Below are positions 4,246 through 63,638 of a DNA stretch of 64,000 nucleotides, in pieces. Under the pieces are notes generated by a model. The model was not told the DNA's origin. It did not search any database and saw nothing but the letters and a program-made list of their open reading frames with translations. Where the stretch lies: positions 62,001 through 126,000 of the forward strand of contig JAAOMT010000525.1 in assembly GCA_016748015.1 (NCBI GenBank), written 5' to 3'. The translations under genes and the position numbers were made by a program. Every line of letters starts with the position of its first letter. Positions within the stretch are counted from its first letter, which is position 1. This DNA comes from Geosiphon pyriformis uo1 (lineage: Eukaryota; Fungi; Glomeromycota).

Positions 4246-7200
4246 CTAAGCACTTATATAAACAGAAACCATGTTCTCAATACTTGAAAAAAACAGACAA
4301 GACTTACAAAACCCAAAACTAACACCAAACACATCAGCAATACCCAATAATCTAATCACACCAGCCGAAAACACCACCAGAAGACCAGAAACTGAGACAG
4401 AAACAGAACTATCTGATAAGATCAAACCACTTTTTTCCATAATAGTCTGGTGTTTGGTACATATCAGCCAAATATCATCCTGAAAAGTAAGACAGAAATC
4501 ATGCACAAAGGAAGCAATATTCTGAGCTGCAACTTTAGAGTCCTTAAAAATAGAAACAGATTCACAATACTAATCATTAAAAACAAAGTCTTTATACAGA
4601 GCAGTACCAATAACAACATCGGAAACACAAGTATATAATAATTACAATACACAAGAAAAAGAGCGAAATAAACCCGAGTATAACTCCCATGCCAATGCAT
4701 AAGCTTTTATCAAATGGGCACGACCAATAGCATCAAAAAGACAAGAAAAAATATGGTTTAAGACTTCAATATTTCTACAGAACAAACACACTACACTAGA
4801 GTAAGACTTATTATAAAGTCACTTATGTACTGCAACAGAAATGAAAGCCAGCAATACATGCACTAGTAAAACCAGCAGCCAAGTGAGAATCAGAATGCCA
4901 CACCAATAAAAATCTGGACTAATCAATATCAGCACGCAGGTTATCCATCAAAATATGGGAACCAGAACCAACCTTCCAACATGCACAGAAAATAGATTAG
5001 AAAATATCATGAACAAAATGCTGAGAATTACCAGAGACAGTCACATCATTAGCTTGAAAAAATTGTTCACTGATTATGTAAGATAGATGCCTATTAAAAA
5101 AAACAGCAGCCTTAGCTAAAGCATTAGCATGTTTATTGTTAAAGACACCAGAGTAACCTTTAACTTTAATCCAATTTACATCCAAATTCTTGTGATAAAT
5201 AACATTAACAATATAATGATGTTTGACTCAACACCAATTCCTGAAATCTGGACAAACCAACACAGACTCCAATTTGCATGCATTTAGAGCAACTTGGCTG
5301 TCCAAAAACAAGTTAACAGAATAGAAAGAAGGAATGCACTTAAGAGCCAGAGCAATGGTCTGTAACTCCATTATTGTAGAAGAGACCAAACCAGAAACTC
5401 CAACACCCAAACCCAAATCAATGTCCTTAAAAAAAACAGCAGCACCAGCCATCATACCAGAAGTTCTCAGATTGCTCAGAGATCCATCTGTGTACACAAA
5501 AAGATAAGCAGCATTAACATGTAGCAAATTAACTTTAATGACACCAAAATTATGAGACCAAAGAACATTAAAAGAGACATTCAAAGATAGGGAACAAACA
5601 GAAAAAGAAGTCTCACCACCAAAAAAACGAACAGAAAGCTCAAACCAAATGGGAACAGAGCCACAAGAGTCCAGTTGCTTTTACCACTTAAAAGTCATTC
5701 AACCAAGAACATTACTATGCTTGTCATGCAGCTGGTCTACAAAAACAATCCCATACCACCAAAGAAAAAAGACATACTTAAAATAATTAAGCTTACCAAG
5801 AACAAAAGACATAGGAGTACCACTTTTATAACAAAATGCACTGGCCAGAAAGCCATCCAAAGACAAATTACATCCAGAAAAAATGTGAACCATACCAGCC
5901 AAAAAATTGTCTAAACAGTTAACTTTAACATGAATCAAAAATTGTAAAAGGTGACAAGAACACCAGCTAAGAACCTGAAGATCATGAGACTTATGAGAAA
6001 ATAACCAACCCAAAATACCCAGCAAATTTGCAAAAGAAACAACGGAAGCTGATTTGCTCTCAGTCTGAATTTGTTCAAAAGTCTTTAAATCATACAAAGA
6101 AAAATAATGAATCACATTAGTAGACAAATCACGTGGAAGACCAGATCTAAATTTCAAGCTTCTGCAAATCATAATATCTCATTTATTACAAACACTAATA
6201 GAAACAAAACTGAATTGGGTCCTGTAACTGACAATAGGAAAAAAAACCACTGACACCAAATATGCAAACTGTTTATTCAAAATTGCTTTCCTTAGAACAA
6301 GATTGACAAAAAACCAAACATTTAAATGTGTCTTAGCCATACTAGGTTTTAACAGACCCTCAGAAAACAAAAAAATACCCAAATAATGATGAGGTTCTCT
6401 TTTTTTGGTGACAGAAATAGGTGAGCCACTAACAGTCAGATGAGGGTTAGAAACCTGGCAGTTGATGGAGATGGCCATAGTCTTGTCATTATTTATAGAA
6501 ATATCATTAAACCTAAAAAATTTACTAGCAACATTGAGGATGTGTTGTATAGCAGTCTGACTACTACCAACTCAAATTGTATTATTAATGAAAGCACCAA
6601 CAGCAAAAAATAATGTCAATCTGGTTTGAGATTCTATCTGGCTCAATCTGAAAACAAAATAAGAATTCAATCTGTAACCACACACACTCTTCTGCCTTTT
6701 GACTTCACATAGAAGTGAATCATAGAATATGTACCAAAGAAAAGATGAGAACACTTCTTTTTGGTCTAAACCATCATGAACATGTTACCCATCAGTTAAG
6801 CCAAAGTTTGTCATCACTTTGTTAACTCAACTATTGTAAATATTACCAAAAAATCTAATGAATCTGTCATATATCTTGATTTTAACCAAACTCCTTTTGA
6901 GATGTTCCCAACCAACAGAGTTATAGGCTTTACACATGTCTTACAAAACCAGCCACAGTTTATGGTTCTTCTCCAATACATCTTTAATCACTAAACTGAT
7001 GGCAAAAATAGATGATTGTGTTGTTGTACCCCTTAATACAGAGAAATTGTCTTTACATAAAACATCATAAGTATTGCAAGCTGAAAAAATCCTGTCCAAA
7101 AGAATCTTGGAAAGGATTTTATGAGCCATTTCAATCAAAGCAATAGGATGAGTATTCATAAGAACATCTTTTTATTCATATAGCTTAGGAATTATCAAAA

Positions 7201-8896
7201 CCCAAGCTTCCTTCCAAGGCTCAGGTACTGATTCATGAGTTAGACACAGATTCAAGAGCACAGAAAGCATAGCCAAGACTGAGTTGTTACAGTGTTTCCA
7301 CAATTTATTAGAGATGTCAGAAAGCCCAGCTGCTTTCCCATTAGGCAAATTTAAGACCACAGCAAACAATTTATCAGAACCAATTGGACATATTACACTG
7401 GAAAATGCACCATTAAAAACATAATCCAAAGACTGATATTGGCAAGTCTAATTATCAGAGATATCAGACACTACTCTGCATTTTTTTGTTCAACTTTCCA
7501 TAATTTTATCCACTTTAGACTTAACCAAATCAGGCTCCAAAACCAACTTATCACCTACAACTAAATGATCCAATACTATCTTATGAAAAGGATGCTTCAA
7601 CACACTCCTAATAGTACAATCCTTATCTGATTCAAAACTTTTTATTCTACTGGTAATAGCCTGCTTGATGTGAGATTCTTTAGCATGCTTGAATTCAAGT
7701 AACTTGAAAGAATAGTAAAACTTTCTTGTTCTTGCCAACCCAGAATGAATAGCATTAAAAGTAGAACCTGAAAGAAAAAGAGACTTTACTTCTGCTGCAC
7801 CACTAGAGTCAAGCCTGTCCCATGTATCCAGCAACAAAACAAAATCATCACTTGAGACCAAATGAGAAGCTTTTACCAGCCTGAACACCAACAACTCCAG
7901 TTTATGAAACTTAGAAGACATCTTGGTAAAAACACTGTTATAATCTTTGAACCATTTCTTCTTGAATGTTCCATTAGCTGAAGAAACTATGATTCTACAA
8001 ACAATGTTCCACATTGCATCCAGATCCAAAAACCTCTCAGCTATTACAAATGCACTTGAAAACATAACAGTATTAGCAGCTGTGGTATTTCTAAACTCAC
8101 AACACTTTCTCTCATCAGCATCTTTGATGTCATACTTCCAATAATCCTTGTTCATCTGCTTGTACAGCAATGACAGCTGAATATCCAACAGACTACTCAG
8201 ATCCACAGAAACAGAAACAGCCATGTGATCAGTATTAAAATAATCCACAACACTAACCACATTGTAATTCACCATTGCATTGACCAAATTTGAGGAAACA
8301 AACACATAATCAATTGTCTTAGCAATTCCATGAGAATTGCACCATGTAGGTATCTTGGCAAATATGCTTCCAGCCAAAGAGTTGACCAGACCCAAATTAA
8401 AACACTTCTTGAAACTGGCACATTTGTGAGATTCATTCTCATTAAAGTCACTACCAAAAATAATGAAAAAAGACTTGTTTACAGTCTTTGCAATAAAAAA
8501 ATTGATGTTACCAGTCTGAAAAAACCAAACCACTGAGGAAGCACCAGCATACAGTCCCAAAATTGACACAAAAAGTTTATTCTTAAAAAGCAACTTGACA
8601 CAAAGGATCCGGCTAGGCACTTTAGAAACCTTGTACACATGACAAGCCAAAAAATTGTCCATAATAATAGCTATGCCTAAACTCAGATAACCAGAATCCA
8701 CCCCAAAAGTGAAGACATAGATACCATCAAATCTGTTCACAATCCACAAACGAATCTTATCTTTCAATTTAGTCTCAGTAACAATGAAAATCAAATTGTT
8801 TATTTCCTTATGCCAACAAACTATATCACCCTGCTTTGCAGAATTATTCATTCTTCTGACATTGCACATAGCAATTTTTCAAATTAAATCAATTAT
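4246..8896 (-). pseudogene. LINE ORF2: APE endonuclease, reverse transcriptase, RNase H, Cys-rich C-terminus
   Basis: Endonuclease motifs CNVR, VTETKL, GSDFN, IDYVF, TDH; RT motifs LPNGKAAG, PIALIE, HYLG; RNase H motifs VYTDGS, ELQTI, WIKVKG.SG..N..A; many stops. Confidence 0.9.
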
Positions 8897-9069: not shown

Positions 9070-9920
9070 TGTTACTTATAGAAATATAGGAAATATATTA
9101 GCATAATTATTAGCCAATCAGAAGTAAGCATAGTAAATGTGGAATTCCAGGATTCCTTTCAAGAATTACAGGATTCCAGGAATTTCAGGATTCCCCGATG
9201 AGGAATTGCAGAATTCCAGAATTTCAGAATTCCTCTCAAAGGAATCGCAGGATTCCAGGAATTCCAAGATTCCTGTCATGAAGAATCAAAGAATTGAGGA
9301 ATCTCAATTATGTATATATAGCAGTAGTATTAAAAACAGAAAAGACAGAATCAATACCACAGAATCCTTAGCAAGAAACAAAATCATTAAATAAATAATT
9401 ATTCCATATCTCAATCCACTATCCACTATCAACACTTTATGTTGATAGTCATTGATACTTAACCACACTGGAACAATAGCTCTTGATCACGGCTATTGAC
9501 GGAATACTAATCTGCCAAACCACCTGGGCTTATTTCTTTTCTTTCTTTATTTTTATTTTATTTTATTTTCTTTTGTTGTTTACTAATTGAGTAAAAGGAT
9601 TAAGTGCTAAGTTATTGACATCAAGGATAGCCTGGTAAAAGACCCAAAAATAAGGATAGAATTTTATATATTATCGGATAGCTTACCAAAAGGGCACAAC
9701 TGCCAGACTAAATCCAACCACCATGCTGAGAAAAAAATTGAGAAAACTCTTGGAAAGATACATCTACTATTGACACTATTGAATCTCTGTCTATTATACA
9801 AAAGACTCCATCAAAATCTTCAGATACCATACCTTCAGAACATTATCAACAGAAATAGCTTTTAAGCACCAAATTACGAGTTGTTATTTACTTCAACAGC
9901 AAAAATAATCCTCTGTAACA
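9070..9920 (+). repeat. 5' LTR of element A
   Basis: TGTTAC...GTAACA; matches 39481-40340. Confidence 0.95.
9138..9305. repeat. U3 tandem array of GGAATTCCAGGATTCC-like units in LTR A
   Basis: Repeated ggaattccag/gattcc units just upstream of a TATATATA box (~9313); also present at ~39550-39715. Confidence 0.8.
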
Positions 9921-9922
9921 TT

Positions 9923-9939
9923 TGGTGCTCCCTGTGAGG
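9923..9939 (+). promoter_or_regulatory. Primer-binding site of A (probably elongator tRNA-Met)
   Basis: TGGTGCTCCCTGTGAGG 2 nt after the LTR; its complement CCTCACAGGGAGCACCA resembles eukaryotic elongator tRNA-Met 3' ends. Confidence 0.75.
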
Positions 9940-9982
9940 TATAATCCTACAAAGAACCAGCACTGATAACACCAAACCAAAA

Positions 9983-12900
9983 GTGGCAGAATCAGAAAAT
10001 ATAGGAGCAAACCATTTAGGATTCACAAAATCCTTATTTCAACACTATTGTCAATACTTGGGATTAAACCACAATCATATATCCGCCAAATCAGCCTTCA
10101 ATTTCTATGTTAACAAAAAGATTTTCTCTTTATTAGGAACACCAATAAATACTAAATCAGCAAGAGAAACTTTCTATAAGAAATTAATTCAAAACACCAA
10201 CATACTAACAAATCATAATTTCACATCTATCATCATTGAGATCAACAAAAAAATTGAACATTACACTCAACAAAGATATCCAATTACATATGCTAGTAAA
10301 GGCAAGGGAAAATTACAAACACCAGCAGTAATACCCAGAAAAATACAGCCACCTGCTTGGAAGAAAAACAGAGTTGAATCCCCAAGCAACCCATCCTATC
10401 ACTATACACTTGGAAGTGCCATCAACATATCATCAACAGATGCATTCCCATCAACTGTGACATCAGCATTTGGACAATTCTCATTCCAAAATAGACAAAG
10501 GAAAGCAGAATTGTTAGGACCATATGGCAAATACTTTGAGGGATTTAATTCACGATCATTAACCCCATCAGGACTTCGATCACCACCGCCTCCACCAGAC
10601 TTCGGAATCTCTGATCCATGGGAAGCAGCAGAATCAGAAAAGAAGGAAAAAGAATCAGAGAATCAAGAATTCACTTACCAGCACCCGATCACTAAAAACC
10701 TGGAAGTTAAAATCCCAAATTTTCAAACTCAGTAAAATCCAGATCTAGAAAATTCGGAAATCAAAACTCTGAATTATCAAAGGCAGAACAATCCAAATTC
10801 CAAATTAATTAATTAGCAAAACTTACCTCCAGTAATCGTTATCAATCAACTGCCGATTAATTCCATAGCCAAACTCATACAGCAGCCACTTCAACTACCA
10901 CCCCAACAACCAGTACAACAACAACTGCTTTAACAGCCACCACAACCACCTAACTTAGATCCAATGGCCTACACACCAATTGCAAAACTTGACAACTTTA
11001 CTGGCGAAGAGGATGACACTCAAGTATGGCTGAACAATGTAAAAAAGGCCATCGCAGCCAATGAATGGAATGACGCTCGAGCAATGCAAGCCATTCCCTA
11101 CTTTCTTAAGAATACTGCCAATTCATGGTACCAGAGCCTGATTAATAAACCACAAGATTTTAATGCCTTCAAAGTGGAATTTCTAAGATACTTCAACAAC
11201 AATAACAGTATCAATTGCCTAGTCAATACATTCACCACCATAAAACAAAGAGAAACTAAAGCAGTCACCACTTACCTGGGACATTTCTACCAAAACCTAT
11301 GCCAAATTTAAGCAATTGATGCCAACTATTTCACAGCATCACAGATACTCAATCAGTTTATCCATGGCCTGCGTAGCAGCATCTTGCAACATGTATGTCT
11401 GTTGCATCCAAGTACCCTTCAAAATGCAGTTACATGTGCCAGAGATTTTAAATCTGCTAAGTCAGAGACTAACCACGCCCAAGCCGTTAATCTAGTAATG
11501 AATGGATCATCTGAATTGGATTCCAAATAGGAGAAGTTCAGTGAATCAATTAATAAAAAATTGGAAGGATACTTAGTTGACAATTATGCCATTTATCAGC
11601 CTCCACAATGATACAATAATCAAGGAAACTCTAATCATGCCCAAAATCAGCCACATCTATTTTTATCGACCAATCAACAGTGGCAACAAGAAACGCGTAC
11701 CTGCTACTATTGTGGTAAACAAAAACACCTCCAAATTGACTGTCACCAGTGTTTAAATAACCAATAATTAGGAAAGCAATATTGAAATCCCAATCACCAG
11801 TTCCAAACTCCGAATCAGTATCCAAATCAAAACCAACCCGCTTACCTACCAGTAATGCAGTCATCCATCTATCAGTCTCTGGTGTACCAAGCTCCAATCT
11901 ATCAACCACAGCCACATGTGATTTATCAACAACCGCAGTCACAAATAATCTATCAACCCCAACAAATCCAAATACCATCCCAAAACTTACCACCCAATGG
12001 AACCCAAAGACCGAGAATGACTTAACAGAGCTAGAAATCAGCAATGATAGTCCATCAACTGATCCCCAGTTCTTCACAGCAATCATCTGGATTACACCAG
12101 CGGAATTCAGATACCAGTCAAGCCCAAAACCTGAATTCCCAGAACTATTTAAGCCTTCTGGTCACCCCAGAAGACGCCTTAACCAATAACCCAGCATTCG
12201 CCCAAAAACAACCACTCATCAGTAATATTCTACCTGCTACCATCACCGAAGACGAGTCCTTGGCTGCTATTTTCTCATTTGAATTCGAGAAAACAGCTGC
12301 AATGCCATTATTTAGTGGAGCTGCTCTTAAAACCAAACCAATTACTGCAATGTACACTGATACCAAAGTCGAGGAACAATCCATCAAATTGATCCTTGAC
12401 AGCAATTCAGCAGGCAGTATCATCACACGGCAACTCATGAAACAATTAAGTCACCGAGTTGATTGAGCTGCCAGCACCAGAATCATCACAGCTGATGGAG
12501 CAACCAAAACTCTAATCAGTGAAATTGACGACTTCCCTTTCGAAGTCAATGACATCATGACTCCCATTAAAGTTCTAGTGATGGAAGCCACTCAATACCA
12601 AGCTCTCGTTGGTAATGACTGGCTATTCAAAGTCAACGCAATGTTAGACTGGAACACCCAGGAACTCCAGTTAACATATCAGGGCCAACACATATGTGTA
12701 CCAGCCATGTGTGGCCACTTTAAGATTCCTCCAAAAGAGAAATTATTGATCGAACTGGAGGAGAAGAAAGAAAAACCTACCTGGGAAGCCTACCAAGTGT
12801 CGTGGGCTGATGAAGAGCATAACAAACTGCCACCAATACTCCCCTGGGATGACAACGACAATGGAAAAGAGAAACAAAAAGAAAAACTTACCTGGGAAAC

Positions 12901-13297: not shown

Positions 13298-14286
13298 TGT
13301 TACCAAACAAAATTAGAGATATTATTTAGCATAAAATTATCTTATAATTCCTATCATTAATTAGCATATATTATTATTTTAAATTATCACTTATTACATT
13401 AGCAAAAATGTCCGAAATTATCATTTAATTAATAACCCAATTTGTACACAACACAAATGTAATCTAATTGCGATGATCAATCATGTAATACCCGAACTAT
13501 GTAACATTCAAAAGTTTGCTGAAATTTGTAGAAATTTGTAGAAATTTACCAAAATAATTGATAGTTCACCGAAATATCTAATAGTTCACAGAAATAACTT
13601 GTAGTTTGCCGAAATGTATCTTTAGTTCAGTGAAATTGTAGAAAATAGCAAAGTTCAAGTTCATAGAATAGTGTTATGACAAGTTGTATAAAAGAAGAGC
13701 TTTTTTCTTCGAGAAAATGTATCTTACTTAAGATTTATCACTTAAAACCATTCCTACGTACACAAAAAGAAATAAATATCAAATAATTTAAAAAACCAAA
13801 TTCTTTAATTATTGCACTTGGAAAATCCCCAAAACCCAACTAATGTTTTAAAATTAATTAGCTACCAATTTCAATAAACTGTTAGTAACTCCAAGCCTGG
13901 ATCGAAAACATTTCTCTTGACAGAATTTTATTTCTTTCACATTTCTTTTATTTTTCTTTTATTTTTCTTATTACAATCATTAGGGTAGCCTACAGACAAA
14001 ATTCCTGTAGAAGAGTTGACTTTCACAGCAAAGTAACTACACATTTTTAGTGAGCTTTCAGATAAGCAATTCCTGGGAAAGAGTTGATATTTACTACAAT
14101 GTAACTACATTAAGTAACTGCCATAGAATTGGCCATTCCACTTATAAGCCCAGCAGTTCAAATTATAGGAGATAATTTGAAGATAAATTCAGTTACTGAA
14201 GGTCCAACTACTTCCTGGAAACGTGAATTCACAACAAATCAACATTAACAACATTCAAGAAAAAAGACCAAAAACCTCTGGTAACA
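13298..14286 (+). repeat. 5' LTR of element B
   Basis: TGTTACCA...TGGTAACA; U3 repeats of (a/g)tttgccgaaat type; TATAAAA near 13687. Confidence 0.95.
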
Positions 14287-14288
14287 TT

Positions 14289-14305
14289 TGGTGCTCTCTC
14301 ATGGA
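14289..14305 (+). promoter_or_regulatory. Primer-binding site of B (tRNA not identified)
   Basis: TGGTGCTCTCTCATGGA 2 nt after the LTR. Confidence 0.75.
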
Positions 14306-14331
14306 AATAACACAGCAACAACAAATTCAAA

Positions 14332-17300
14332 GTGGCGACCACACCAGATGCAACAACTCTAGAGTATTACCAGTCAATTTACACCCACTGCAAGCAAAGA
14401 TTCAACATTCCAGACGGAATTGAAGTTGTTAAGAAATCAGTATATTAATATATTGAAAACTGCATCAACAATTATTTTTTTGGAAATTACAATATCTCAG
14501 AAGTTAGAAGCAATCTTTACAATAATTTAGCACATTATTCACAGTTGGGAACTGAAGATTTTAACAGTGAAACACTTGCCACTTACTTTCACGAACTTAA
14601 TTTTAACATTATCAAATACTGTGAAGAAACATATCCAGTACAGTCTCAATACTCTATTAATTTTAAATTGGAAACAGAAACAAGCAACAAAGGCAAAAAC
14701 AAATTGAAGCAATACTCAAAAATCACCCCAAATACTCCAACACTACCAAAAACGACTGCCAAACATTTACAAACACCTGAACAAAGAACCAGTTCAAAAC
14801 TTCCACTTACTATCACACCTTTTCCAGCTTCACTTGCACAAGCACAAACACCTAATTCACCCTTGAATTGATTTGCAAGACCAGAAGATTTTACATCACT
14901 CAGAAGTCCCATCAGACAACAAGAACCCCTTCAAACTAGTTCCAATCTTCTTGACTTTCTAGCTGAAAATCAAAGTGAACACTCTAAGACAGCAGCGAAC
15001 AAAAAAAACAACTCTGAAATATCTAAAGAAGAATCAATAGACAATGAAAATGAAGAAGACAAAATGACAACATATATCGCAAAAATCCCGGAATTTAATG
15101 AAGAAGACATTGAGACCAGTCTCCAAGAATGGCTCGACCAAGTTACTAAAGCTGGAGATGCAAATGAATGGAATGCTGCCAGAATATTAAGAACAATTCC
15201 CTACTTTCTCAAAGGAACAGCAGGAGAATGGTTTGAAAACTTGGTTGCTCTATTCAATGATTGGAATGCTTTTAAAGCAGCCTTCCTTGAACAGTTCACC
15301 GACAATAATACCTCCATCACCCTTTGTAATTGTTTTCAAAATATCAAACAAGAACCCTCCGAATCTGTTATGACTTATATTGGGAAATTCAACAAACTTC
15401 TCAGATGAATTTGCCAACTCGAAACAAACAATTATTATTCCAATGCTCAAATCTTGGATCAATTTATCACTGGTTTAAAAGATAAACTAATTAAAAAGAT
15501 TCGCCCACATGCGCCAGAAGATTTAAACTCTGCCATACAGCATGCAAAAAGATATGAAATGACCATGGAAGAGACCAATCACACAAAACTTGTAAATTTG
15601 GCAATTGCAGAAACCAGCTCAGCAGCTGAGAAAAAAATTGACCAACTCACAAAGAAGGTTGAAAACTATTTTACCAAGCAACAACAACAGCAACCCCAAA
15701 GATATTAACCACCTCAAAGATATTAACCACCCCAAAAATGAAATCAAAATAATTTTGCACCACTTTCCAATAACCAGTCTCAGAATTGCCATTACTGTGG
15801 AATCTCTGGCCACTGGAAAAGAGATTGCAGGAAGCTACAACGAGACCAACAAAATAAAAATAATTAACGTTATCTTCCATCACAGCAATCTTATTATCAA
15901 CTACCACCACTAGCTTACTATCCACCAAGGCCCCAATACCAAAATAACTATTATCAGCCCGCCCCACAGCCAATCCAACAGCAATACCAACAACCACCCA
16001 CACAACATTATCAAGTATCTGCTCGAAGACTGAGTACACAAAGTCAATTCACACCACAAAACCGATACCAAGTAAACAACAATAGAATCAGTTCGAACAA
16101 CCAATTGGTTCCTCGAAATTCTACTCAACCAAGACCCAACCATTATCACACTCAACCCAATTATTTAACAATGTCAGAAGAACAGGATTTTCACCATACT
16201 GCACCTTCGGAAGGTAGAACTGCAGCACAACAACAAAACCCTTCTCATAACCACACCACTATTCCATCAGCCCAAATTGCTGAAAACGCCAATCTCTTTG
16301 ATATCTTTCCTTTCGAGTTCAAAGCCAATGAATCACCATTTCTACTCAGCAATGCAGCCGCTAATGAACAAAAAGCAAGCACTGCTATGTACACTGAAGC
16401 AGAAGTTGAAGGAAAGACAATTTGCTTGATCCTAGACAGTGGATCCGCTGGAAGCATTATCACCTACCAGTTAATACAACAGTTAAAGAAAAATGTCGAC
16501 CGATCAGCTCAAACAGTAATCATTACTGCTGATGGCATGAAAAAGACTTCAGTAGGAGAAATTGAGAATTTTCTATTCACTCTTGATGGAATTACCATTC
16601 CAGTCAAAGTTCTTGTAATGGATGCACCCCAATACCAAGCTCTCTTGGGAAATGATTGGCTTCAAAAAGCCAATGCTAATCTGAATTGGGAAACACAAGA
16701 GTTAACAATCTCCTACCAAGAACAACACGCCCAGGTACCTGCCACTTATGGTACATTCAACAAATGCTCTGAAAAAGCCCCAGTTTTTGAATTCGAACTG
16801 GAAGAGGAAAAACCCTTCATTGAAACATTCATGGCTCTTGGATCAACATCCAACTGGGCCAATGAAACGGAACAAAAACATTTTACCTCACACTCTGAAC
16901 CCGAAACCTCTGGATGGAATATCCCTTACTCAAAACCCGAACCAAAGAAACAACGTCCCTATATTCTCCTTAAATGTAAAGACTGCCACAAAAAACTATT
17001 GTCAATGGAAGCCTGTATTTTACCTAAAGAAGAATATAAAAATCATACTTGTTATTACTGCAAGGCTTACCACAGAGAACAATGGGGCCATCTAATAAAA
17101 AGAAGTAGAAAATGGGACAACACCCCTTGTTTGACTTGTGGAGATATACTACCAGAAGAATGCAATTGAATTGATATAGCAATGAGAGAAGGAGTCTGTG
17201 ATCAAACCTGCCAATATGCTTTATCAATTTCAGAAAAAATCAAAAAAGGAACACCTTTTAATGTAGCATACAACAGTGCTCTCAACAAACTTTATCACTA

Positions 17301-19967
17301 CCCCTATGATACTGAAATGATTTTCAATTTAGCAATGGCATTAATTAATAGAGCTACCAAAGAAGATGTTCGTCAAATGAAGGAAGCAGAATACATTGAA
17401 TACACCATGGAATTAGCTAGATTTGATTACAAAAATGAAGTAAAAGTCTACTATCAAATTGCAAGTCACACCTACCCAATCCAAGAAGCTCAAATTCAAC
17501 AATTAGAGCAAATGAACATTAGGCTATGTGAAAAATGCATTATGTCTTGTAATGAACAGTGGTGTCCTGAATGCTATGCTCTTAGCATCCTCTTGCCCAG
17601 TGAAAGTGATGAGAACGAAATTGAATTTGGAAAACCTGAAGCCACAAAAGAAATTGAAACAACACCTACTTATCTTATCAAAAATCAGCCTGCTTTACAA
17701 CTTAAATACTTCAACAACAATAGACAAGAAATAAAACCTGAAAAAACACATGAAATTGATGCTGGATATAACTTAAGATATCCAGATAAGGATACTCTTG
17801 TTTTCTAACCCAAATCTCTCACAAAAATCAACCTAAAAATTGCACTCAAAATCCTGCTAGAAACAATGATTCAAATCGCCTCCCAGTCCTCTCTGGCAAG
17901 CAAAGGAATAAATGTTAGAGGAGGAATAATCGATGCTGGATATACTGAAAACATTACAGTAATGCTTCAAAACGAAACTGACAAATCATTCAAGATCGAA
18001 CATGCTGAAAAAATTGCCCAAGCTATTTATCTACCCCTAATCAACATTTTGGGTTTGCAACTAGTCAATCAAAGAGAACAATTAGGAAAAAGTGATAGAG
18101 GAACCCAAGGTTTTGGTTCAACTGGACAATTCACAGTTCCAATTAATATAGCTCTTAATACACAGAACGAATCCCACCAGATTCTCAGACTTCCACAACC
18201 AATTACCATCTCACCCTTTGGAGAACATCCGGAAATCTACACCTGCCCAAAGCCAACAACCACACAACAAATTTTTGAGTTCAATGAACAAGTCTGCTTG
18301 AAACATAATATTTTAATTCCAAACATTTATATTCCAGAAGGAACAAAAAAAGTCCGAGTTACTTTTTACAACCCCAATAATTACCCCATAATTTTATTAA
18401 ATAATTTAGAAATTGGAGTTATTCACAGTAATATATTTCAACAAAAATTATCCCAAACAGTTCCCGATTTCTCTGAAATTATTGGACATTCACTACCAAA
18501 AATCAACCCAAACTTCAGCTCTGAAAATTACCATGTTGTTATAGAAAAACTGTCTCGAATCAACATGGAACAACTTGAACCACAACAACAGACCCAGCTC
18601 AAAGAGCTAATTGCAGAATTTGCCAATATCTTTGCTGAAAACAACAATGACTTAGGAAGAACCGATTTGGTCCAACACCAAATTTATACAGAAGATGCCA
18701 AACCAAGAAGACAACAAGCATATCGAGTTGCTCCAGAAAGCCACCAATTCATCCAAGAAGAAATACAACGAATGCTTAACAATGGGCTCATCCAACCCTC
18801 CATGAGTCCTTGGGCTTTACCTGTAGTGCTAGTTAAAAAGAAAAATGGAAAGATCTGATTTTGTGTTGACTATTGACAACTCAATAGTGTTACAATTGGA
18901 GATGTCTATTCTCTTCCCCAAATTAATGACATGTTAGATGCCCTTGAAAAATCCAAATACTTTTCAACACTAGATTTAGAAAGCGATTACTGGCAAGTTG
19001 CTATGGATTCCATAGATCACTCCAAAACAGCATTTATTACCCAAGACGGAAATTACGAGTTCAATATAATGCTTTTCGGATTATGCAATACACCAACAAC
19101 ATTTCAGAGATTAATAGATGTTGTGTACCAAGGACTTTTTAGAAGTCAGTAGTCGTTTATCTTGACAATACTGATGTTTATTCTCCATTGTTCAAATTAC
19201 ACTTAAAACACCTGTGAAAAGTTTTTCAATGATTACAAAAAGCAAGACTAAAACTTAACATCGAAAAATGCTACTTTGGAAAAACAAGTTTGGCCTTCCT
19301 TGGGCATATTGTTAATGAAGATGGAATCAAACCAGACCCTGGGAAAATTAGCATTGTCAAAAACTTCAAAACTCCTTGAAACACTACAGAACTAAGAGAA
19401 TTCATAGGATTAGCATCCTACTATCAGAAGTTTATCAAAGAATTCTCAGAAATTGCAAAACCCCTCAACCAGCTCACCACCAAAAACATTGAATACAAAT
19501 GGACTACCGAACACCAAAAAGCTTTTGAAATTCTCAAGGAAAAACTGACAACAGCTCCAATCCTCGCCTACCCAGATTTCAGTAACTGATTTCGACTAGC
19601 TACAGATGCTTTGTATACTGCTTTTGGTGCCATCTTATCACAACTAGATAACAATGGAAATGAGCAAGTAATTGCTTATGCTAGCAGAACATTAAAACCA
19701 GCTGAGAAAAACTATCCTGCCACAGAACTAGAAACAGCAGCCATAATTTGGGCCCTACATCACTTCAACCTTTATCTCAGGCCTAAAGAATTTGATATTA
19801 TTACTGATAATATTGGACTCAAATAGTTACAAAACAAAAACACTCAGCTGAATACCAAACAAACCAAATGGACAGAATTTTTAGCAAACTATTAATACAT
19901 AGTACATCACAAACCAGAAAAACTCCACACCAATATTGATTGTTTCTCCAGAATGAGACAAGATTAG
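14332..19967 (+). pseudogene. Element B gag-PR-Cys-rich-dUTPase-RT-RNase H polyprotein
   Basis: CHYCGISGHWKRDC, ILDSGSAGS, DAGY/RGTQGFGSTG, YLDN (decayed YLDD), ELETAAI; one frameshift near 19140 and many CAA/CGA/TGG-derived stops. Confidence 0.93.
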
Positions 19968-20018
19968 AAAACACAAAAACCAACACTCAACTTAACCAAT
20001 TAAAACAACCAACAAACA

Positions 20019-21404
20019 ATGAATTTGGAAAACTACAACAATCTCAAACAATATTTGGAAACATTAACAATCCCAACAGATTGGTTTCCAGATAAAAAAC
20101 ATCGACTACAACAACAAGCCAAACAATATTTTCTACACAACAACATTATTTATCATCGAAATTTCAAAAACCCAAACAAACCACTCAGATTAATACAAAA
20201 ACAGGAAAAAATGACCATCTTATACAACATGCACTCAGATCCTTCATTAGCACACTTTGGAAAAGATAGCACCACCCAAAGAACACTAGAATACTACTTT
20301 TGGCCTCGAATGAGGAAAGACATTCACAAATATGTTGAGTTTTGTAATAATTGTTAAAGAAAAGAAAAAATACGCCCTATTGAACCATTAAATCTAATCA
20401 AAGTTGGACAACCCTTTGACCAAGTTGGTATCGATTTAGTCGGACCACTATCTATCACCACTCAAGGAAACCGTTATATTGCAGTAGCTGTAGACTATCT
20501 TACTAAATGGCCTGAAGCCAGAGCCATTCAATGAGCAGATACAAAATCAATAGCAAATTTCATCTATGAAGACATCATTTGTAAACACGGATGTCCAATT
20601 GAACTTTTATCTGATCAGGGGACACACTTTGTGAACAACCTGATACAAGAAATTTGCGAACAATTCAATGTCAAAAAACCTTTGTCTTTGCCCTACTATC
20701 CACAAACAAATGGACTTGTGGAACATTTTAACAAAACATTGTGTGAGTCATTAGCCAAAGTCTTAACTGATTTTGAGCAAGAGTGGGATATCTTTATTCC
20801 ATCAGTGTTGCTAGCATACAGAACACTAAAACAAGATACCACAAAACACACACCATTTGATTTAACTTATGGAAGAACAGCAACATTACCAATTAATTTT
20901 ACAGTGGAAACATACCTAGTACAACCAATCAATGAAAACAATTTCCAAGAAACGCTTCAGTGAAGAGCCTACACTCTGCTTAGCACATTGGAAGAAAAAC
21001 AATGAATAGCAGCCACCCATATTGAACACTCCCAAGCTTGACAAAAAGAACAGCATAATAACAAATTGCCTCCAGTCACCAATGAATTTAAAACCGGAAA
21101 CAAAGTTCTCTTACACAGAACTAAAGCTGAAAAACAATGGAGTGGAAAATTTGAAAATAAATGAGATGGACCATTCTTTATCCATAAAGTCCTAGGCAAT
21201 GGATCATACAAGCTAAGACTTGATGACAAAATTCTAACAAAAGTTGCACATGGAGATTGTTTGAAACACTATCATTCCAGAAACAATCCTGAACCATTAA
21301 TTCTACAAATTGGTAGACATTCCTCTTTAGTCAATCCCGAAGATATTTCCCAAAACTTAGAACCAATAGTTGTCATTGAACAACCTTCCAACCTGAACAC
21401 TTAA
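20019..21404 (+). pseudogene. Element B integrase (separate ORF)
   Basis: Own ATG; H..H/C..C zinc motif, GIDLVGP, SDQG, NGLVE, GPF module; no chromodomain seen. Confidence 0.92.
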
Positions 21405-21510
21405 TTTAATTTTACTAGTTATTCTCTTATAATTTAGAAACAATCAAAACAAAAATAACATAAAAACCCATACACCAAAAATAATTTTCTTTTATTTCAA
21501 ATTTCTTATA

Positions 21511-22230
21511 ATGACTATTCCTCAAAACATTCAACAATTATCCCAAAAACTAATGTTAGCTTTAAAAACAATACCCAAATTATCCATTACTGTTAGTGGA
21601 AACCACATTAATTATACCCAAACAGAAGTAGTTATAAATTTAGCCCCAAATTTACAAAAATATCATCCATATAAGAAGAACACAAGAAGTTATTCTGGAA
21701 TTCATCTGCCAGAACTTTTAAAGCTTGCTTTAAGAGAAAACCTAATGCTCACTCCAATTAGTATTCCACCAAATGCTACAATTCAACAAAGACTTCAACT
21801 GTGTTTCAAGAAGGAAAACACTGAATATTTTCCAATCTATAGATATTTCAACATTAGAAAAACACTCTATAAACGAAAACTGGAACTTACAACAGCAAAC
21901 CTCACAAAAGAAGCCATTCAGAAACAACTCCACAATGAATTTAAGACAACAGCTGGATCAACAAACAGTTGCTACAGGCTCAGAGCTGCTTTTAGACTTT
22001 ATGACCTATTCTATACCTGTGAAAACATACTACAAAACCCAATTTTTCAATCTTTGAAGATTCAATACATTAGAAAGCTCACAGAACTGAAATTTCAACA
22101 ATTTTCAGACCAAATTTCTTCAATAATTTTGGATTATTATCTGGAAATGACAGACAGTACTTGGACTTCGACAGAGCTCAGTCTTGAGGAGGAGGTTATG
22201 TTACCAGATGAAATTAGAGATATTATTTAA
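21511..22230 (+). CDS. Element B ORF3, 239 aa, unknown function
   Basis: Uninterrupted ORF between IN and the 3' LTR, reading through the PPT; homologous to the ORF3s of A and C. Confidence 0.85.
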   Translation: MTIPQNIQQLSQKLMLALKTIPKLSITVSGNHINYTQTEVVINLAPNLQKYHPYKKNTRSYSGIHLPELLKLALRENLMLTPISIPPNATIQQRLQLCFKKENTEYFPIYRYFNIRKTLYKRKLELTTANLTKEAIQKQLHNEFKTTAGSTNSCYRLRAAFRLYDLFYTCENILQNPIFQSLKIQYIRKLTELKFQQFSDQISSIILDYYLEMTDSTWTSTELSLEEEVMLPDEIRDII

Positions 22231-23177
22231 CATGAAATTATCTTATAATTCCTATTATTAATTAGCATATATTATCATTTTAAATTATCACTTATTACAT
22301 TAGCAAAAATGTCTGAAATTATTATTTAATTAATAACCCAAATTGTACACAACACAAATGTAATCTAATTGCGATGATCAATCATGCAATACCCGAACTA
22401 TGTAACATTCAAAAGTTTGCCGAAATTTGTAGAAATTTGCCGAAATAATTGATAGTTTACCGAAATATCTAATAGTTCATAGAAATAACTTGTAGTTCAC
22501 CAAAATGTATTTTTAGTTTAGTGAAATTGTAGAAAATAGCAAAGTTCAAGTTCATAGAATAGTGTTATAACAAGTTGTATAAAAGAAGAGCTTTTTTCTT
22601 CAAGAAAATGTATCTTACTTTAGATTTATCACTTAAAACCATTCCTATGTACACAAAAAAAAATAAATATCAAATAATTTAAAAAACCAAATTCTTTAAT
22701 TATTGTACTTGGAAAATCCCCAAAACTCAACTAATGTTTTGAAATTGATTAGCTACCAATTTCAATAAACTGTTAGTGACTCCAAGCCTGGATCAAAAAT
22801 ATTTCCTTTAACAGAATTTTATTTCTTTCACATTTCTTTTATTTTTCTTTTATTTTTCTTATTACAATCATTAGGATAGCCTACAGACGAGATTCCTGTA
22901 GAAGAGTTGACTTTTACAGCAAAGTAACTACATATTTTTAGTGAGCTTCCAGACAAGTAATTCCTGGGAAAGAGTTGACATTTACTACAATGTAACTATA
23001 TAAAGTAACTAGTATGGAATTGGCCATTCCACTTATAAGCCCAGCAGTTCAAATTATAAGAGATAATTTGAAGATAAATTCAGTTACTGGAGGTCTAACT
23101 ACTTTCCGGAAATGTGAATTCACAACAAATCAACATTAACAACATTCGAGAAAAAAGACCAAAAACCTCTGGTAACA
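22199..23177 (+). repeat. 3' LTR of element B
   Basis: Follows the PPT gaggaggagg; matches the 5' LTR. Confidence 0.95.
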
Positions 23178-24833: not shown

Positions 24834-24835
24834 TT

Positions 24836-24852
24836 TGGTGCTCCCTGTGAGG
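24836..24852 (+). promoter_or_regulatory. Primer-binding site of C (identical to A)
   Basis: TGGTGCTCCCTGTGAGG. Confidence 0.8.
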
Positions 24853-24895
24853 TTATAAATCCACAGAGACAGAGCACCCCCAAAAATACATAAAA

Positions 24896-27800
24896 GTGGT
24901 GACTATTAGAACAATAGGAAAAGACCACTCCTCATACGAAAAAACACTATTTCAATACTTTCAAAAAAACTTAGGAATACCAGCAGGAACCACTTACACA
25001 GAAAGTGATTTTTGTAACTATATTAATGCAAAAATCAACTGCTTGTTAGACTGCGCAACTGATACAGGAAAACTTGGAGAACAAATCTATCAAAGTTTAC
25101 TAGGGTATTCAACAGCCACAACTACCCGAGCAATCGCTGAAACTCTGCGCATAATCGATACAGACATTAAATATTACATGGCACAATGATTCCCTCAAGT
25201 ACAACAACCAGTGGAATCCGATCCTGAGGAATACAAAAATGAATCCAACAAATCTGTAACTGCCTAAGCCAAGTCCACAGTCAACAAGAAACCAAGGATC
25301 CTCTCCCCAACAACTCCATCATACCATTAGACACCCTAAAGTAGAATTGTATTCAACCCACCTCCGGAAACTCAGTCAGAAACACCACGAACTCCTGGAA
25401 ATCCACATCCTTGGAATCAACACAGTTGGACCAAATCACTAGGAGAATACAGATCGCTGTTTGGAAATCTTAATCCAGCAGCTGGTCAAACAGAAAGAAA
25501 CCCATCAACTTGGAAACAGCTACCAGCACAAAACCTAGCAGAATCAGCATCTCCTCTGATGGAAAAAACAGCTATCTTACAACTTATTGGTTCAAGTGAC
25601 AAAGGAAAGCAACCAGCATTAGCACCCAGAGAACACTTGAATACACGGACACCAATCCTTTTAAACATAACCAGTAACACCCCACCCATTAATCAGATCA
25701 TGGCTTACCAAGATATCACTAAATTGGAAAAATTCTCTGGTGAAAAAGATAACGCATATTCTTGGATCGTGGATGCTGAGAAAGCAATTACCGCTAATGG
25801 TTGGAACGACAACCACACAGTTCAGGCACTGCCATTCTTTCTGACCAAAACCGCCAATTCGTGGTACCAGAGCCTGGCAGAGAAGCCTATTTCCTTTACC
25901 GAGTTTAAACTCGCATTTCTGCAATACTTCTGTGACCCCAATATGTTAATCCGATTGCAGAATCAATTCAGCATAATTAAACAAAAAGATCATGAAGCAG
26001 TAACTACTTATCTCGGACGATTCAATCAAATCCTGCATCAAATATTAGCTATCGAAAGGAACTACTACACCATGGTGCAAGTTCTTAATCAATTCATTAA
26101 AGGATTGTGGAGTAGTATTCTAAGATTCATAAGACCCTGCCATCTGACCAGTTTACAAGACGCCGTCACTCTCACTTGCAATTTTGAGTCTGCAGAACAA
26201 GAAGCGAACCATACCCAAACCATTAATTTAGCCATTAATGGAACTTCTGACATTGACACAAAAATAACCCAATTGAGTGAGAAACTAACTCAGAAAATTG
26301 AGGGATTCTTAGCCAGAACTACAGAAACTTACCAACCACTCCAACGGAGAGAAAATAACAACAACAGCAGATACCCACAGCAACAGAACTGTCAGCAACA
26401 GCAACAATCTTGGAGATCTGATCTCTGCAACTGCTACTACTGCCAGAAACCTGGACACATTGTCCGTGATTGCAGAAGGAAAATCATGGACCAAAATCAA
26501 GAAAACCCATACCAGCAATCCAGATATCAGCAAACCATGGTATCCCAATATTCTATACCTTAGAATCAACCACCCCTATATGCACAACAGGTCCTGTATA
26601 CTCAACCACCACCCCAGAATTATTATCAACCACCACCAATGACACAAGCAATCTCTTACTATTAAACTTCCCCTTACAGCCTGTCCAAACCTCGAGCTAT
26701 AGACTATAATCAGGGATGGAGGAATTCCAACAACAATCAGGTGCAAACCAACAGTAAATCATCTCGACCAATCCCTCGCGGTCCTGTCCAATCTCAACCA
26801 ACACCAACTGGATACCCGAATCAAGCTTCCTATCTCAGTCTTATGGAAGACTAGGGTTTTGATAAATCTATACCTGTGGAAAAGGAGGATATAAAACAAA
26901 TCTCCCAACCTTCCAAGCAAACAAAAAGCAATATTCCACTAGCCACTATTACCAAAGACACCACCCTAGCCGCCATATTTCTTTTTGATATCAATAATTT
27001 AAACACACATAGCTTTTTTAGTGGAGCAGCCATCAATCAGGGTAAACCAATAACGGCTCTATACACTGATGCCAGAGTCGGAGGAATAGACATTAAATTA
27101 ATCCTGGATAGCGGATCAGCCAGTAGCATAATTACAAAACAGCTCATAGACCAACTAGGTCGCCGAGTAAACCATGCTGCTACCGCCTGGATCATTACAG
27201 CAGATGGGAACACAAAAACCCTGATAGAAGAAATTGACAACTTCCCCTTTGAGATTAATGGAATCCAAATCTCTACCAAAGTACTCATTATGGAAGCTAC
27301 TCAATATCAAGCTCTAGTAGGAAATGACTGGTTGTCAAAAGCCAACACTATTCTCGACTGGAACACCTAAGAACTTCAACTCATGTTCAATAGACAACAT
27401 GCCCGAGTCCCAGCTACGTGCAGACACTTTAAAAACCAACATACCAAGGAACCCCTTATTGAATTCGAAGACACATCAATGCCACCAACTATCGAGACCT
27501 ATCAGGTTTCATGGGCAGATAATTATTGAACTGAACTACCCCCACCACCAACCTGGAAAGAAAAAGGAAAAGGCAGAGCCGAAGAAGAACCCCAATCATC
27601 ATCACTAGGATACGTAACCTCGGACCAAAGAAACTTATTTTACCAACCCCCAAGACTAATATGTGTTGATTGTGGAAAAAAACTATCCACTATGGGCGCA
27701 TGTATTGAGGACAACAAAGAATGGCCCACCACCACTAAATACTATTGCAGGCCTTGTTTACTGGAAAGATTTGGATGACCAAAATGACAAGGCAAGTGGA

Positions 27801-30685: not shown

Positions 30686-30695
30686 TCCCAGACCC

Positions 30696-32878: not shown

Positions 32879-32892
32879 AAAAAGAGGGATAA

Positions 32893-60763: not shown

Positions 60764-63638
60764 GTGGCGACAAAAACCCCTAATCTTACTGTTCTTGAAT
60801 TCTGCCATGCTATTTACACACAAAATCAAAGTGATTTTGGATTACCAGAAGGGTGTTGTCCAGCAGAATCTGCCCTCACTTATTATATCAACGCCAGAAT
60901 AAATTATCATATAGGAAAGGAAGAAGAACCACACAACGCAAAACTTGGATTGTATAGAGAATTATTACAATACACTACAAAAGAAGTAGCAGTAATAGCC
61001 GCAACTATTGTCAAAATCCATCGAAAAATTGAGCAATACGCCAACGAAAATTTTCCAATATCCACAGGAAACACTAGGAAACGCGCCAACAAAACCAAAG
61101 AAAATTTAGAAACTAATTAGGAAAGTAACCAGCAAAAACTAGGAACACCAGCTCAAACGCCAAAGAAAACTGTCACTCAATCAATAAAAAAACAACGTAT
61201 TTATTCACCAGAAGATAAATCATACCATTTTTCACCAGAAAATAAGATACAAATTCCATTAGGAGCTGCATCATCATCAACATCAACTCCACAAATGCCA
61301 AGAACTCCTAGTTATATTGATAAAATTAAACAACGTAACTGGGGAGACATACCAATTACAGGAGGATATTCATTACTATTCCAAAATCCTCTTTTTCAGC
61401 CAAAATTTAGAACGGGGTTTGAAAACCGTAAAGAGGAGTCTGAATCGGAATCCGAAAAAGAGACCAGCAAAAAAACAATCACAAGACCAGTCACTGGAAC
61501 AAGCAGCCAGTCCAGAAACCAAGAAACTCGTGATCAAGAGAAAGAACCAGATATAAGGGAAGCCACCTTTAGGAACGCTCAAGGAAATATCATCACACCT
61601 TCTCTTAGACCAATAAACCCACCAGCAGAAAACAGCAACGAAATGACCACACCATACATTGCAAGACTAACAGATTTCTCAGGAGAGAAAGAAGAAACGA
61701 ACATGCACACATGGTTCAGAGAAGCACAAAAAGCCATCCAGGCAAATAACTGGAACGACCAAAGAGCAATTCAAACATTACCTTTCTTTCTGAAAGGCAC
61801 AGCCGACTCGTGGTATCAAAGCCTGGAAACAAAACCCATGAGCTTCGCCGAATTTAAAAATGCACTCCTGGAGTATTTTAGCGACCCAAACGCAGTAATC
61901 CAACTACAGAACGAATTCAATACTATCAAGCAAAATACCAGTGAAACTGTCACCCAATACCTTGCTCGATTCAATCGAATTCGCCGTCAGATTGAAGCGA
62001 TTGAACAAGGATACTACACTGATCCTCAGGTTTTAAATCAGTTTATTAGAGAATTAAAAAGCAGCATTTTAGGAAGAGTATGCCCTGCCCACCCTAATTC
62101 CTTACCAGAAGCCGTTACGCTTGCCAGAGCCCTTGAATCGGCTGAGAAAGAAGCTAACCATAGTCAAATGGTTAACATGGTAATGGAGGAAAATAAGACA
62201 GAAACATTAGAGAAAAGAGTAACGCGATTAGGGAAGGAACTTTCTAAGAAAATAGAAAGTTACCTCATCCCGGATCCGAGAAAAAATACATACCAACCAC
62301 CCCAAAGACGCAGCCAGGAAGTCAGCGACAGTTGAAATAATCGCTCGTCACGCCAGGAATTCAGAACAGAAACACGCGCCTGCCATTTTTACAAACGCAT
62401 AGGACATTTGATTAGTCAATGTCGAACGCGAATAATGCAGGAAGCACGCGAAAATAATTACTACACGCCACCCCAAATGCCCAGAAACCAGTACACGCCA
62501 ATACCACGCCAATATTCCACCACGTATCAAAATCAAGGAGCTTACCAGCAACAGCCCATGATAGCCAACCCGAATTGGTGTCCCGAGGCCCGAAATTAGC
62601 CCATGTGGAACCAGAACACGTTGGTCCAGAGGAATCCAAACCGCGCCGGAACCAATCAGCAAACCAATCCAAACTACCAAAATTATCAACAAACTTACCT
62701 TAATATACTGGAAAATCTGATCATTGGAAACAATGATGGTAGAAACATAAACAGAACCAAGAATTCCTCCAAATTGAGCCAGACAATACCACCAGCAGTT
62801 GCCACCGAAGATAGCAGCCTCGCAGCTATTTTTCCTTTTGAATTAGAGGAAAACGAGGCTATGTTCAGTGGAGCAGCATTGGACGAAAAACGCCCAATCA
62901 CTGCTATGTATATGGAAGCCACTATAAACAATACCCCAATCAAACTTATCTTAGACAGCAGATCCGCTGGAAGCATCGTAATGCTTCAACTAGTAAACCA
63001 ACTGGGTTTCAAAGTTGATTGTGCCGTGACGCTCCAAATCATAACAGCCGATGGAAGTACAAAGCTGTCTTATGGCGAAATCGACTCATTCCCTTTCGAA
63101 ATTAACGGCATAGTAATACTTACAAAAGTATTAGTAATGGATGCTACACAATATCAAGCGTTAGTAGGGAATGACTGGTTAACAAAAGCCAACGCCACCC
63201 TAGACTAGACCACCCAAGAGCTTCTGATCAATTATAATGGCCACCAGGCCAAAATTCCAGCCACCTGTGGCCACTTCCAAAAACCCAGCGCCAACCAAAG
63301 ACCTACCTTCGAATTTGAGGAAAATCCAGCACTACCAGCCATCGAAACCTATCAGCTCTCTTGGGCTGATGACCAAAGAACAAAACTACGCAGCACATGA
63401 ACTTGAATGCTTAGCAGTAGTCTAGAGTTGTGTTCACTTTGACACATATTTACGGTACCAACCCTTTGAGATTACGACAGATCATAGAGGTCTGGTCTAG
63501 TTAAATAACAAGAAAGCGCTAAAAAGAAAATATGCCAGATGGTCACAAACGTTAGCACTATACAATTATATTATCAAATACAAAGAAGGTACCAAAAATG
63601 CTAATGCCAACTGTTTGTCAAGAATGAGACACACATAA
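60764..63638 (+). pseudogene. Element E gag-protease fused by deletion to the RNase H C-terminus
   Basis: MTTPYIARLTDFSGE capsid start at 61643, ILDSRSAGS; YQLSWADDQR joins NYAAHELECLAV near 63380. Confidence 0.9.

Follow-up and report, generated by a model that had tools for sequence, protein, structure and literature searches.

Paired in-frame GUG and AUG codons suggest an N-terminally extended Gag in Ty3/gypsy retrotransposons of Geosiphon pyriformis

Several genetic systems are known in which an upstream non-AUG codon yields a longer form of a protein. Murine leukemia virus (MLV) produces glyco-Gag (gPr80gag), a minor N-extended Gag, from an in-frame non-AUG codon upstream of the gag AUG on the unspliced RNA (PMC3042739; PMC5120145). 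This codon lies in the favourable context accCUGg, and ribosome density in the extension was reported at 6.7% of that in gag (PMC5778647). For PEG10, initiation at both an upstream non-AUG codon and a downstream AUG was established by mutagenesis (PMC2800197), and conserved near-cognate codons of Neurospora cpc-1 open a long frame free of AUG and give N-extended isoforms (PMC5487733). Near-cognate starts are described as weak, with a ranking of CUG > GUG > ACG; eIF4G2/DAP5 starts at GUG, and a GUG start uses the initiator Met-tRNA (PMC5666671). Here, a 64,000-nucleotide stretch of the Geosiphon pyriformis uo1 genome, referred to as the window (assembly GCA_016748015.1, contig JAAOMT010000525.1, positions 62,001 to 126,000, forward strand), is examined. 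Long terminal repeat (LTR) elements account for 41.2% of this genome (PMC11952901), and expression of gypsy elements is on record for Rhizophagus irregularis (PMC8647823). The window contains four divergent Ty3/gypsy families, designated A, B, C and E, each with a conserved GTG codon in frame with, and far upstream of, the ATG at the capsid boundary of gag. Pairs of non-AUG and AUG starts in gag, established for MLV and the domesticated PEG10, are thus encountered as a candidate arrangement in a mobile LTR retrotransposon.

To judge from sequence, the elements resemble MLV in that a non-AUG codon, in frame and in good context, precedes the gag AUG, and they resemble PEG10 in the pairing of an upstream non-AUG start with a downstream AUG in a Ty3/gypsy-type gag. 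However, glyco-Gag begins at CUG, adds 88 residues with a signal peptide, and belongs to a mammalian retrovirus, whereas the Geosiphon elements have GUG, 244-327 additional residues and a predicted soluble helical domain, and are fungal Ty3/gypsy elements whose reverse transcriptase (RT) groups with those of fungal Ty3/gypsy elements. PEG10 is a domesticated mammalian host gene with a CUG 34 codons upstream and a -1 frameshift to pol; unlike it, the Geosiphon elements form mobile, multi-copy, LTR-bounded families with GUG, a folded domain followed by a long linker, and gag, protease and RT in one frame. With cpc-1, from a filamentous fungus, they share a candidate near-cognate start heading a long AUG-free frame, but cpc-1 encodes a host transcription factor, has several near-cognate codons under upstream open reading frame (uORF) control, and is not a retroelement. 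Ty1 also has two Gag forms of differing N-terminal length, of which p22 is a truncated restriction factor started at an AUG on a shorter subgenomic RNA (PMC4551931); the evidence in Geosiphon points instead to one RNA and an extended form. The system would work like glyco-Gag and PEG10 and belongs to neither, as it has no signal segment, no CUG and no frameshift, and is neither a retrovirus nor a host gene. A full-text literature search, outside of which most subscription papers lie, returned no mobile LTR retrotransposon for which Gag starts at a non-AUG codon and no description of the Geosiphon families.

A sequence-only reading of the window had reported AAA-GTG-G shortly after the primer binding site (PBS) and in frame with gag, with no in-frame ATG before it. 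Both observations were reproduced: the motif occurs in all four elements (Table 1), and no in-frame ATG separates the PBS from the GTG in any of them. In the window copies an in-frame stop lies 8-16 codons upstream of the GTG, and B has a single out-of-frame ATG at 14301, within the PBS. AAAGTGG occurs eight times on the plus strand of the window; four of these occurrences are the start sites, each 43-80 nt past the start of the PBS. Among in-frame near-cognate codons, the GTG is the only one with A at -3 and G at +4 that is common to all four families. Two upstream candidates, an ATA at 9941 and a CTG in the PBS, were rejected because the families do not have them in common and the peptides upstream of the GTG change frame between A subfamilies.

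The residue at this position was then tabulated in other copies. Among 240 predicted proteins examined, 215 had domain matches and 207 covered the start, with Val in 176, Met in 18, Leu in 10, Ile in 2 and Glu in 1. The distribution was similar in family A (Val 73, Met 7, Leu 5, Ile 1, Glu 1; n=87), family B (Val 71, Met 9, Leu 3, Ile 1; n=84) and family E (Val 31, Met 2, Leu 2; n=35). In family C the only covering copy (P0179) has Val, and four further copies, matched from profile position 2, read Lys-Val. Thus, a consensus with ATG at this codon, which would have contradicted the earlier reading, was not what the copies contain. In 11 of the 18 cases the Met stands first in its predicted protein, which suggests that the capture of Met copies is favoured; at internal positions only 7 of 196 start residues are Met. 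With a stricter alignment, Met was found in 2/59 (A), 9/83 (B) and 1/34 (E) copies, a share within or below the 5.0-19.5% G>A change at first positions of Ala, Glu, Asp, Gly and Val codons elsewhere, and these Met residues are therefore the expected product of GTG>ATG decay. The great excess of Met over Ile at the column further indicates GTG rather than another Val codon. The converse change is not available to the local bias, as had been argued, since decay is mainly C>T and G>A (C>T at 358 places, G>A at 231, A>G at 133 and T>C at 134 between 9000 and 11400). Judged from the upstream peptides, the Leu residues look like gene-finder joins into AAAG/TG.

A second conserved start had been proposed at the capsid boundary, and an ATG in frame with the GTG is indeed present there in each element (Table 1). 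The capsid column has Met in 14/15 (A), 60/78 (B) and 25/29 (E) aligned copies, or 99/122 overall, with Ile as the usual decay product. Between the TATA-like box and this codon, ATG is depleted about four-fold in all frames. Its density in any frame is 4.5 per kb in the leaders (measured from a point ~30 nt past a TATA-like box identified by eye, and for E from a sequence gap only) and 4.4 per kb in the extensions, compared with 18.3 in U3 and 18.2 downstream. The extensions hold 15 ATGs against 39.8 in dinucleotide shuffles (0/500 as low), the leaders 11 against 32.4, and the downstream regions 384 against 411. The depletion holds for the two other frames by themselves, as out-of-frame ATGs in the extensions number 12 against 29.8 in codon shuffles (0/5000 as low), compared with 140 against 143 downstream. 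In frame, Met occupies 3 of 1128 extension codons and 76 of 3945 comparison codons. In all four elements the desert stops at the capsid ATG.

The residual ATGs lie mostly at positions of ACG decay; for example, those at 9723 and 13843 in the leaders are ACG in the sister LTRs. The extensions were said to contain few Met residues, and the counts are 0, 0, 2 and 1 for A, B, C and E. In other copies Met makes up 0.08-0.36% of extension alignment cells, and columns with at least 8% Met are all of the Thr/Met or Ala/Val/Met type that CpG decay would give, in agreement with the proposed origin from ACG or CGTG, save for one alignment-offset column beside the capsid Met of B. It had been cautioned that ATG>ATA decay could have erased Met residues, but no extension column shows a stable Met majority with Ile as decay product, the pattern seen in the capsid Met column. 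As an added and independent test, the loss of ATGs in all frames up to the capsid ATG lends support to the leaky scanning that had been suggested.

The extensions span 327, 244, 268 and 293 in-frame codons in A, B, C and E, as originally counted. The window copies contain three, two, four and one internal stops, respectively, which read Gln or Arg in other copies. Among predicted proteins spanning start to capsid, no more than 10 residues are missing in 30/74 (B) and 21/29 (E); in A this is so for 0/12, the best lacking 20. The similarity between families that had been noticed from the GTG onward was re-examined over the first 110 codons and proved frame-specific in five of six pairs (z 4.2-19.1 in frame, at most 0.3-4.7 in other frames), while the B-C comparison did not discriminate (6.9 in frame vs 7.2 in another). 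In the first ~100 codons, identity between families at codon positions 1, 2 and 3 is 42.5, 52.8 and 38.9% (n=583 pairs; position 2 vs 3, P=2.5e-6) over a background of 27.8, 29.6 and 32.1%, and the capsid has a pattern of the same shape (59.3, 66.9 and 37.9%). A pattern of purifying selection, the absence of which would have spoken against the extension, is hence visible in the first ~105 codons. The two-start arrangement is retained across four families that are only 20-27% identical within this domain.

The claim of a conserved, uncharacterised N-terminal domain is in line with structure prediction. With a 61-row alignment, AlphaFold2 predicted five helices over ~105 residues (mean predicted local distance difference test score, pLDDT, 81; predicted template modelling score 0.74). 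The extension is accordingly predicted to consist of a ~105-residue helical domain and a 140-220-residue low-complexity linker, in which 59-67% of residues are P, S, T, Q, E, K or N. Against Pfam the A domain had no match at all, and PAZ_2 was discarded as a weak hit (best E 9e-4, 10/61 rows, all from E and B) that finds no support in the all-helical model. The best match among PDB sequences was partial, to ribosomal L24 (E 0.006); Foldseek searches of PDB and viral structures gave nothing at E<=0.001, and the ESM Atlas gave no usable match. The best VIA-align match, a nuclear pore chain (Z 7.6, root-mean-square deviation 3.1, 102 aligned), is within noise for helical bundles. The missing family or fold match does not prove that the fold is new. 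No membrane or signal segment was detected in the extensions (maximum 19-residue Kyte-Doolittle values 1.27, 0.39, 0.67 and 1.10).

Every named match among those listed for the extension is from Geosiphon pyriformis. A search with the A extension gave 185 matches and one with a B/C/E profile gave 526, and the best 120 of each were all Geosiphon pyriformis 'hypothetical proteins'. Searching 1.84 billion representatives with a profile yielded 201 matches; among the best 150, 115 were new and all belonged to family A, B, C or E, and ten more divergent matches that were looked up were all from Geosiphon. Hundreds of Geosiphon 'hypothetical proteins' are thus this extension, to which gene finders, requiring an ATG, have attached invented exons upstream.

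More distant relatives were sought through the RT, with 3354 matches; among the best 120, the closest named fungal sequences are from Rhizophagus and Cetraspora, 52-55% identical. Including environmental elements, the listed Ty3/gypsy relatives are 52-58% identical in RT. In a 42-row RT tree built with FastTree, they fall with the window elements and every element with a Met-free extension on one side of a split (support 0.999), opposite the animal-type elements; branching within the fungal side is weakly supported. Eleven of the listed RT relatives have a capsid match below 1e-5. Seven are fungal-side elements with an upstream region, P0424 being represented by its longer cluster member P0489, and the remaining four comprise one incomplete record, an arachnid fusion and a pair beginning at the capsid. 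In six of the seven the first Met is at or shortly before the capsid: P0426, P0429, P0393, P0489, P0387 and P0412 have 157-241 Met-free residues, with the first internal Met 0 to ~36 residues before the capsid. P0500 of R. irregularis has 232 Met-free residues and a Met ~60 before the capsid. Taken singly, these runs have P values of 0.03-0.09, and they are not mutually independent. Long pre-capsid extensions with a first internal Met at most ~60 residues before the capsid are therefore found in other Glomeromycotina elements, but their sequences are unrelated to that of Geosiphon, with no homology to the Geosiphon domain detectable by hhalign (probability 0.2%).

P0393 is stop-free over 1321 residues and has no true Met before residue 182, which lies at the edge of the capsid and is where two other records begin. 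Four JGI records give its first residue as Val and five Logan records give Met there, a difference that identifies the codon as GTG; in P0429 the aligned position reads Lys-Val-Asp. A second type of extension, in P0500, P0387, P0412 and P0399 (residues ~1-135), has invariant His14, His18, Cys36 and Cys39 and likely binds zinc. It is predicted to be helical (pLDDT 71), its best structural match (Z 4.8) is no fold match, and it does not align with the Geosiphon profile. Elements of this type probably start at ATG, as NCBI and JGI records begin with Met. The polyproteins of P0393, P0426, P0429, P0489, P0373, P0372, P0388, P0387 and P0502 end right after RNase H, which places their integrase in a separate frame or open reading frame (ORF).

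Genome contigs served as controls only: of 12 distant loci, 10 were examined and three had a capsid match below 1e-3 (L002, L010 and L013). L010, an LTR element across the RT split, has an ATG-started pre-capsid segment with 13 ATGs in 525 nt, and L002 and L013, also on the other side, start at the capsid, so the desert is not generic. The loci L002-L013 are Ty3/gypsy elements within bacterial metagenome-assembled genomes and likely represent eukaryotic contamination; the LTRs of L010 are 99% identical. Metagenome scans for relatives returned one distant and uninformative locus (L001, 22% identity), and no DNA of the relatives was found among viral contigs.

The Geosiphon elements combine a pair of conserved codons in the same frame, an extension that other copies keep open, a codon-position pattern of selection, an AUG desert, and a single frame for gag and pol. 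On sequence evidence, leaky scanning is the probable explanation: one RNA would yield mainly the short Gag(-Pol) and a smaller amount of the long one. A minority of ribosomes would initiate at AAA-GUG-G and make the long form; the remainder would scan the AUG-free corridor of ~1.4-1.6 kb and initiate at the capsid AUG to make the short one, with the weakness of the GUG codon setting a low long:short ratio. The long form might then be a minor Gag isoform that co-assembles with the short form. As a guess based on its place in the protein and on analogy, the tethered domain would occupy the matrix position on the outside of the capsid shell, where it would bind a host factor for targeting, nuclear entry or counter-defence.

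Other routes to the same two proteins, or to only one, have to be weighed. The GUG start could be real and the short Gag arise by an internal promoter, by shunting or an internal ribosome entry site on the structured U5 motif, or by protease cleavage with a structural Met. Such routes would spare ribosomes a long scan of 1.4-1.6 kb, a structured leader motif with covarying stems exists in all four families, and Ty1 p22 comes from a subgenomic RNA (PMC4551931); yet none of them needs the removal of out-of-frame AUGs (12 vs 29.8 expected) or a desert that terminates at the capsid ATG in all four elements, and we regard them as unlikely. Splicing is less probable still, whether AAAG acts as a 3' splice site (A/UG) or an upstream exon brings its own AUG. 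The AAA before GTG does create an AG/TG junction, which some models of the genome's gene finder use with Leu or Met as the result, and A/GT(A or G) donors are present in all four leaders. However, the acceptor is AAG, not YAG, in every family, the preceding 30 nt are only 7-20% T, and a branch-like CTRAY occurs in one of four; donors of this kind abound in AT-rich DNA and occupy no position common to the families, the leader has hardly any conserved AUG that an upstream exon could bring, and Met is confined to 7/196 internal start residues.

It might also be held that the start was once ATG, or that the extension is non-coding and merely Met-less. The copies are heavily decayed, with LTR pairs differing at 7-9% of sites, mostly by transitions, and A>G differences are among them too (133 places). 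Against this stand Val in 176/207 copies from four families and several subfamilies, a C>T/G>A decay that makes ATG from GTG and not the reverse, a coding signature with a confident predicted fold, and an intact relative, P0393, that also has GTG. Decay as the origin of the pattern is largely refuted and is very improbable.

Several observations nevertheless count against leaky scanning from the GUG. The copy counts were taken from gene-finder proteins, not DNA, and the four copies found of the A subfamily of greatest divergence (41-49% identity to A) have Val in one, Met in two (as predicted first residues) and Leu in one. Leader ATGs at 9439 and at 24124, 24578 and 24591 are present in both LTR copies, so short uORFs may exist, and the leader boundaries themselves depend on TATA-like boxes chosen by eye. 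A Gln/Pro/Asn-rich region after the zinc knuckle is also ATG-poor (8.7 per kb, compared with 3.8 in the linker), which implies that composition accounts for part of the desert. No consistent hairpin was found downstream of the GUG (z +1.1 to -0.9). Among the relatives, P0399 of R. clarus has five Met residues in its long pre-capsid region. Bacterial gene callers choose GTG mechanically, and P0393 thus attests the codon, not its use.

If leaky scanning from the GUG is correct, it would add a translational strategy to Ty3/gypsy biology and provide natural evidence for GUG starts by Glomeromycotina ribosomes. In addition, the analysis defines an unannotated Gag domain that is predicted to be foldable. 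A broader proposal is made tentatively: the Glomeromycotina branch of Ty3/gypsy might possess a two-start Gag cassette with a weak start upstream (GUG for Geosiphon and for one or more further clades), an AUG-free corridor, and an interchangeable accessory domain on few capsid subunits. At least three unrelated extension types would have been swapped in, the Geosiphon domain would represent a new fold family and serve as an accessory factor that counters host silencing or aids nuclear entry, and a leader RNA motif would tune the system.

Table 1. Positions of the elements' features within the window (position 1 is its first nucleotide).
Feature	Position	Strand	Remarks
5' LTR of A	9071..9920	+	92% identical to 39483-40340; ends TGTAACA
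Signals in 5' LTR of A	TATA-like box ~9313-9320; AATAAA ~9390; long U5	+	picked by eye
U5/leader structured RNA motif of A	9625..9696	+	common to all four families
U5 motif elsewhere	13983-14075 (two tandem copies); 24493-24570; 60440-60500; sister LTRs
PBS of A	9923..9939	+	TGGTG, 2 nt past LTR end; contains in-frame stop TGA 9935
Inferred upstream start of A, AAA-GTG-G	9983..9985	+	Val in 73/87 family-A copies
N-terminal domain of A (~105 aa), predicted five-helix bundle	9983..10297	+	AlphaFold2; codon-position pattern
Low-complexity linker of A extension	10298..10963	+	Met-free; three decay stops in window copy
Capsid-boundary ATG of A, inferred second start	10964..10966	+	Met in 14/15 aligned copies; 30/38 by motif count
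Capsid, zinc-knuckle region and protease of A, single frame	10964..12826	+	pol resumes past nested insertions, ~34060-38640
3' LTR of A	~39483-40340		self-comparison
GTG start and 244-codon extension of B	14332..15063	+	LTR 13298-14286; PBS 14289; capsid ATG 15064
GTG start and 268-codon extension of C	24896..25699	+	LTR 23738-24833; PBS 24836; capsid ATG 25700
GTG start and 293-codon extension of E	60764..61642	+	PBS 60684; capsid ATG 61643

Self-comparison and Pfam searches showed that the window holds Ty3/gypsy LTR retrotransposons that are nested and decayed. Element A contains B (13298-23177), C (23738-33967) and a B-like solo LTR (36116-37126), and E starts near 60300 and is cut off by the end of the window. 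LTR pairs are 90-93% identical in A, B and C; in all four elements the PBS (TGGTG) sits 2 nt after AACA, and purine-rich tracts precede the 3' LTRs. The Pfam order is PF03732, PF19259, PF00098, aspartyl protease, dUTPase, RVT_1 and rve, with the RNase H region located by tblastn, and the capsid profile matches Drosophila Arc1 weakly (E 0.002). By LTR and PBS features and domain order, the window elements are Ty3/gypsy (Metaviridae-type) LTR retrotransposons. Gag and protease share one frame in each element, and in B and C the same frame extends across dUTPase and on into RT. The dUTPase domain lies between protease and RT (17809-18130 in B, 28511-28975 in C, 34090-34450 in A) and is also present in the relatives P0397, P0415 and P0420. 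After RNase H, C shifts frame (~30670-30720) and B reads through. An extra ORF in an env-like position between integrase and 3' LTR (21511-22230 in B, ~32050-32880 in C, ~38700-39480 in A) has no Pfam match; its C-terminal motifs look alike by eye in the three elements.

The leader also contains a structured RNA motif of the form (U/G)AGCY-stem...stem'-(G/A)AAG. Its stems differ between families and are still complementary: TGGTAA/TTACCA in A and C, TCAGAG/CTCTGA in E, and TACAG/CTGTA and TCCAG/CTGGG in B. Thirteen of 14 plus-strand matches to the motif lie within LTR U5 regions, and Rfam gave nothing at gathering level, with chance-level matches only. The motif could be a packaging signal, a translation element or a ribozyme. 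In addition, the sequence after the PBS can pair with the PBS to form a hairpin shortly before the GTG (9921-9968, 14289-14320 and 24836-24880); this is clearest in C (GGTGCTC...GAGCACC, z -2.3) and weaker in A and B.

Outside the LTR elements, a 418-bp direct repeat (42447-42864 and 42885-43302, 100% identical) surrounds a run of N and is probably an assembly artefact. On the minus strand, 5228-8878 and 41331-42167 are decayed fragments resembling long interspersed nuclear elements, with an RNase H match and what we take to be an endonuclease-like appearance. The minus strand at 52833-53339 holds part of a host gene with a pyridoxal phosphate-dependent decarboxylase domain (PF00282), presumably akin to sphingosine-1-phosphate lyase.

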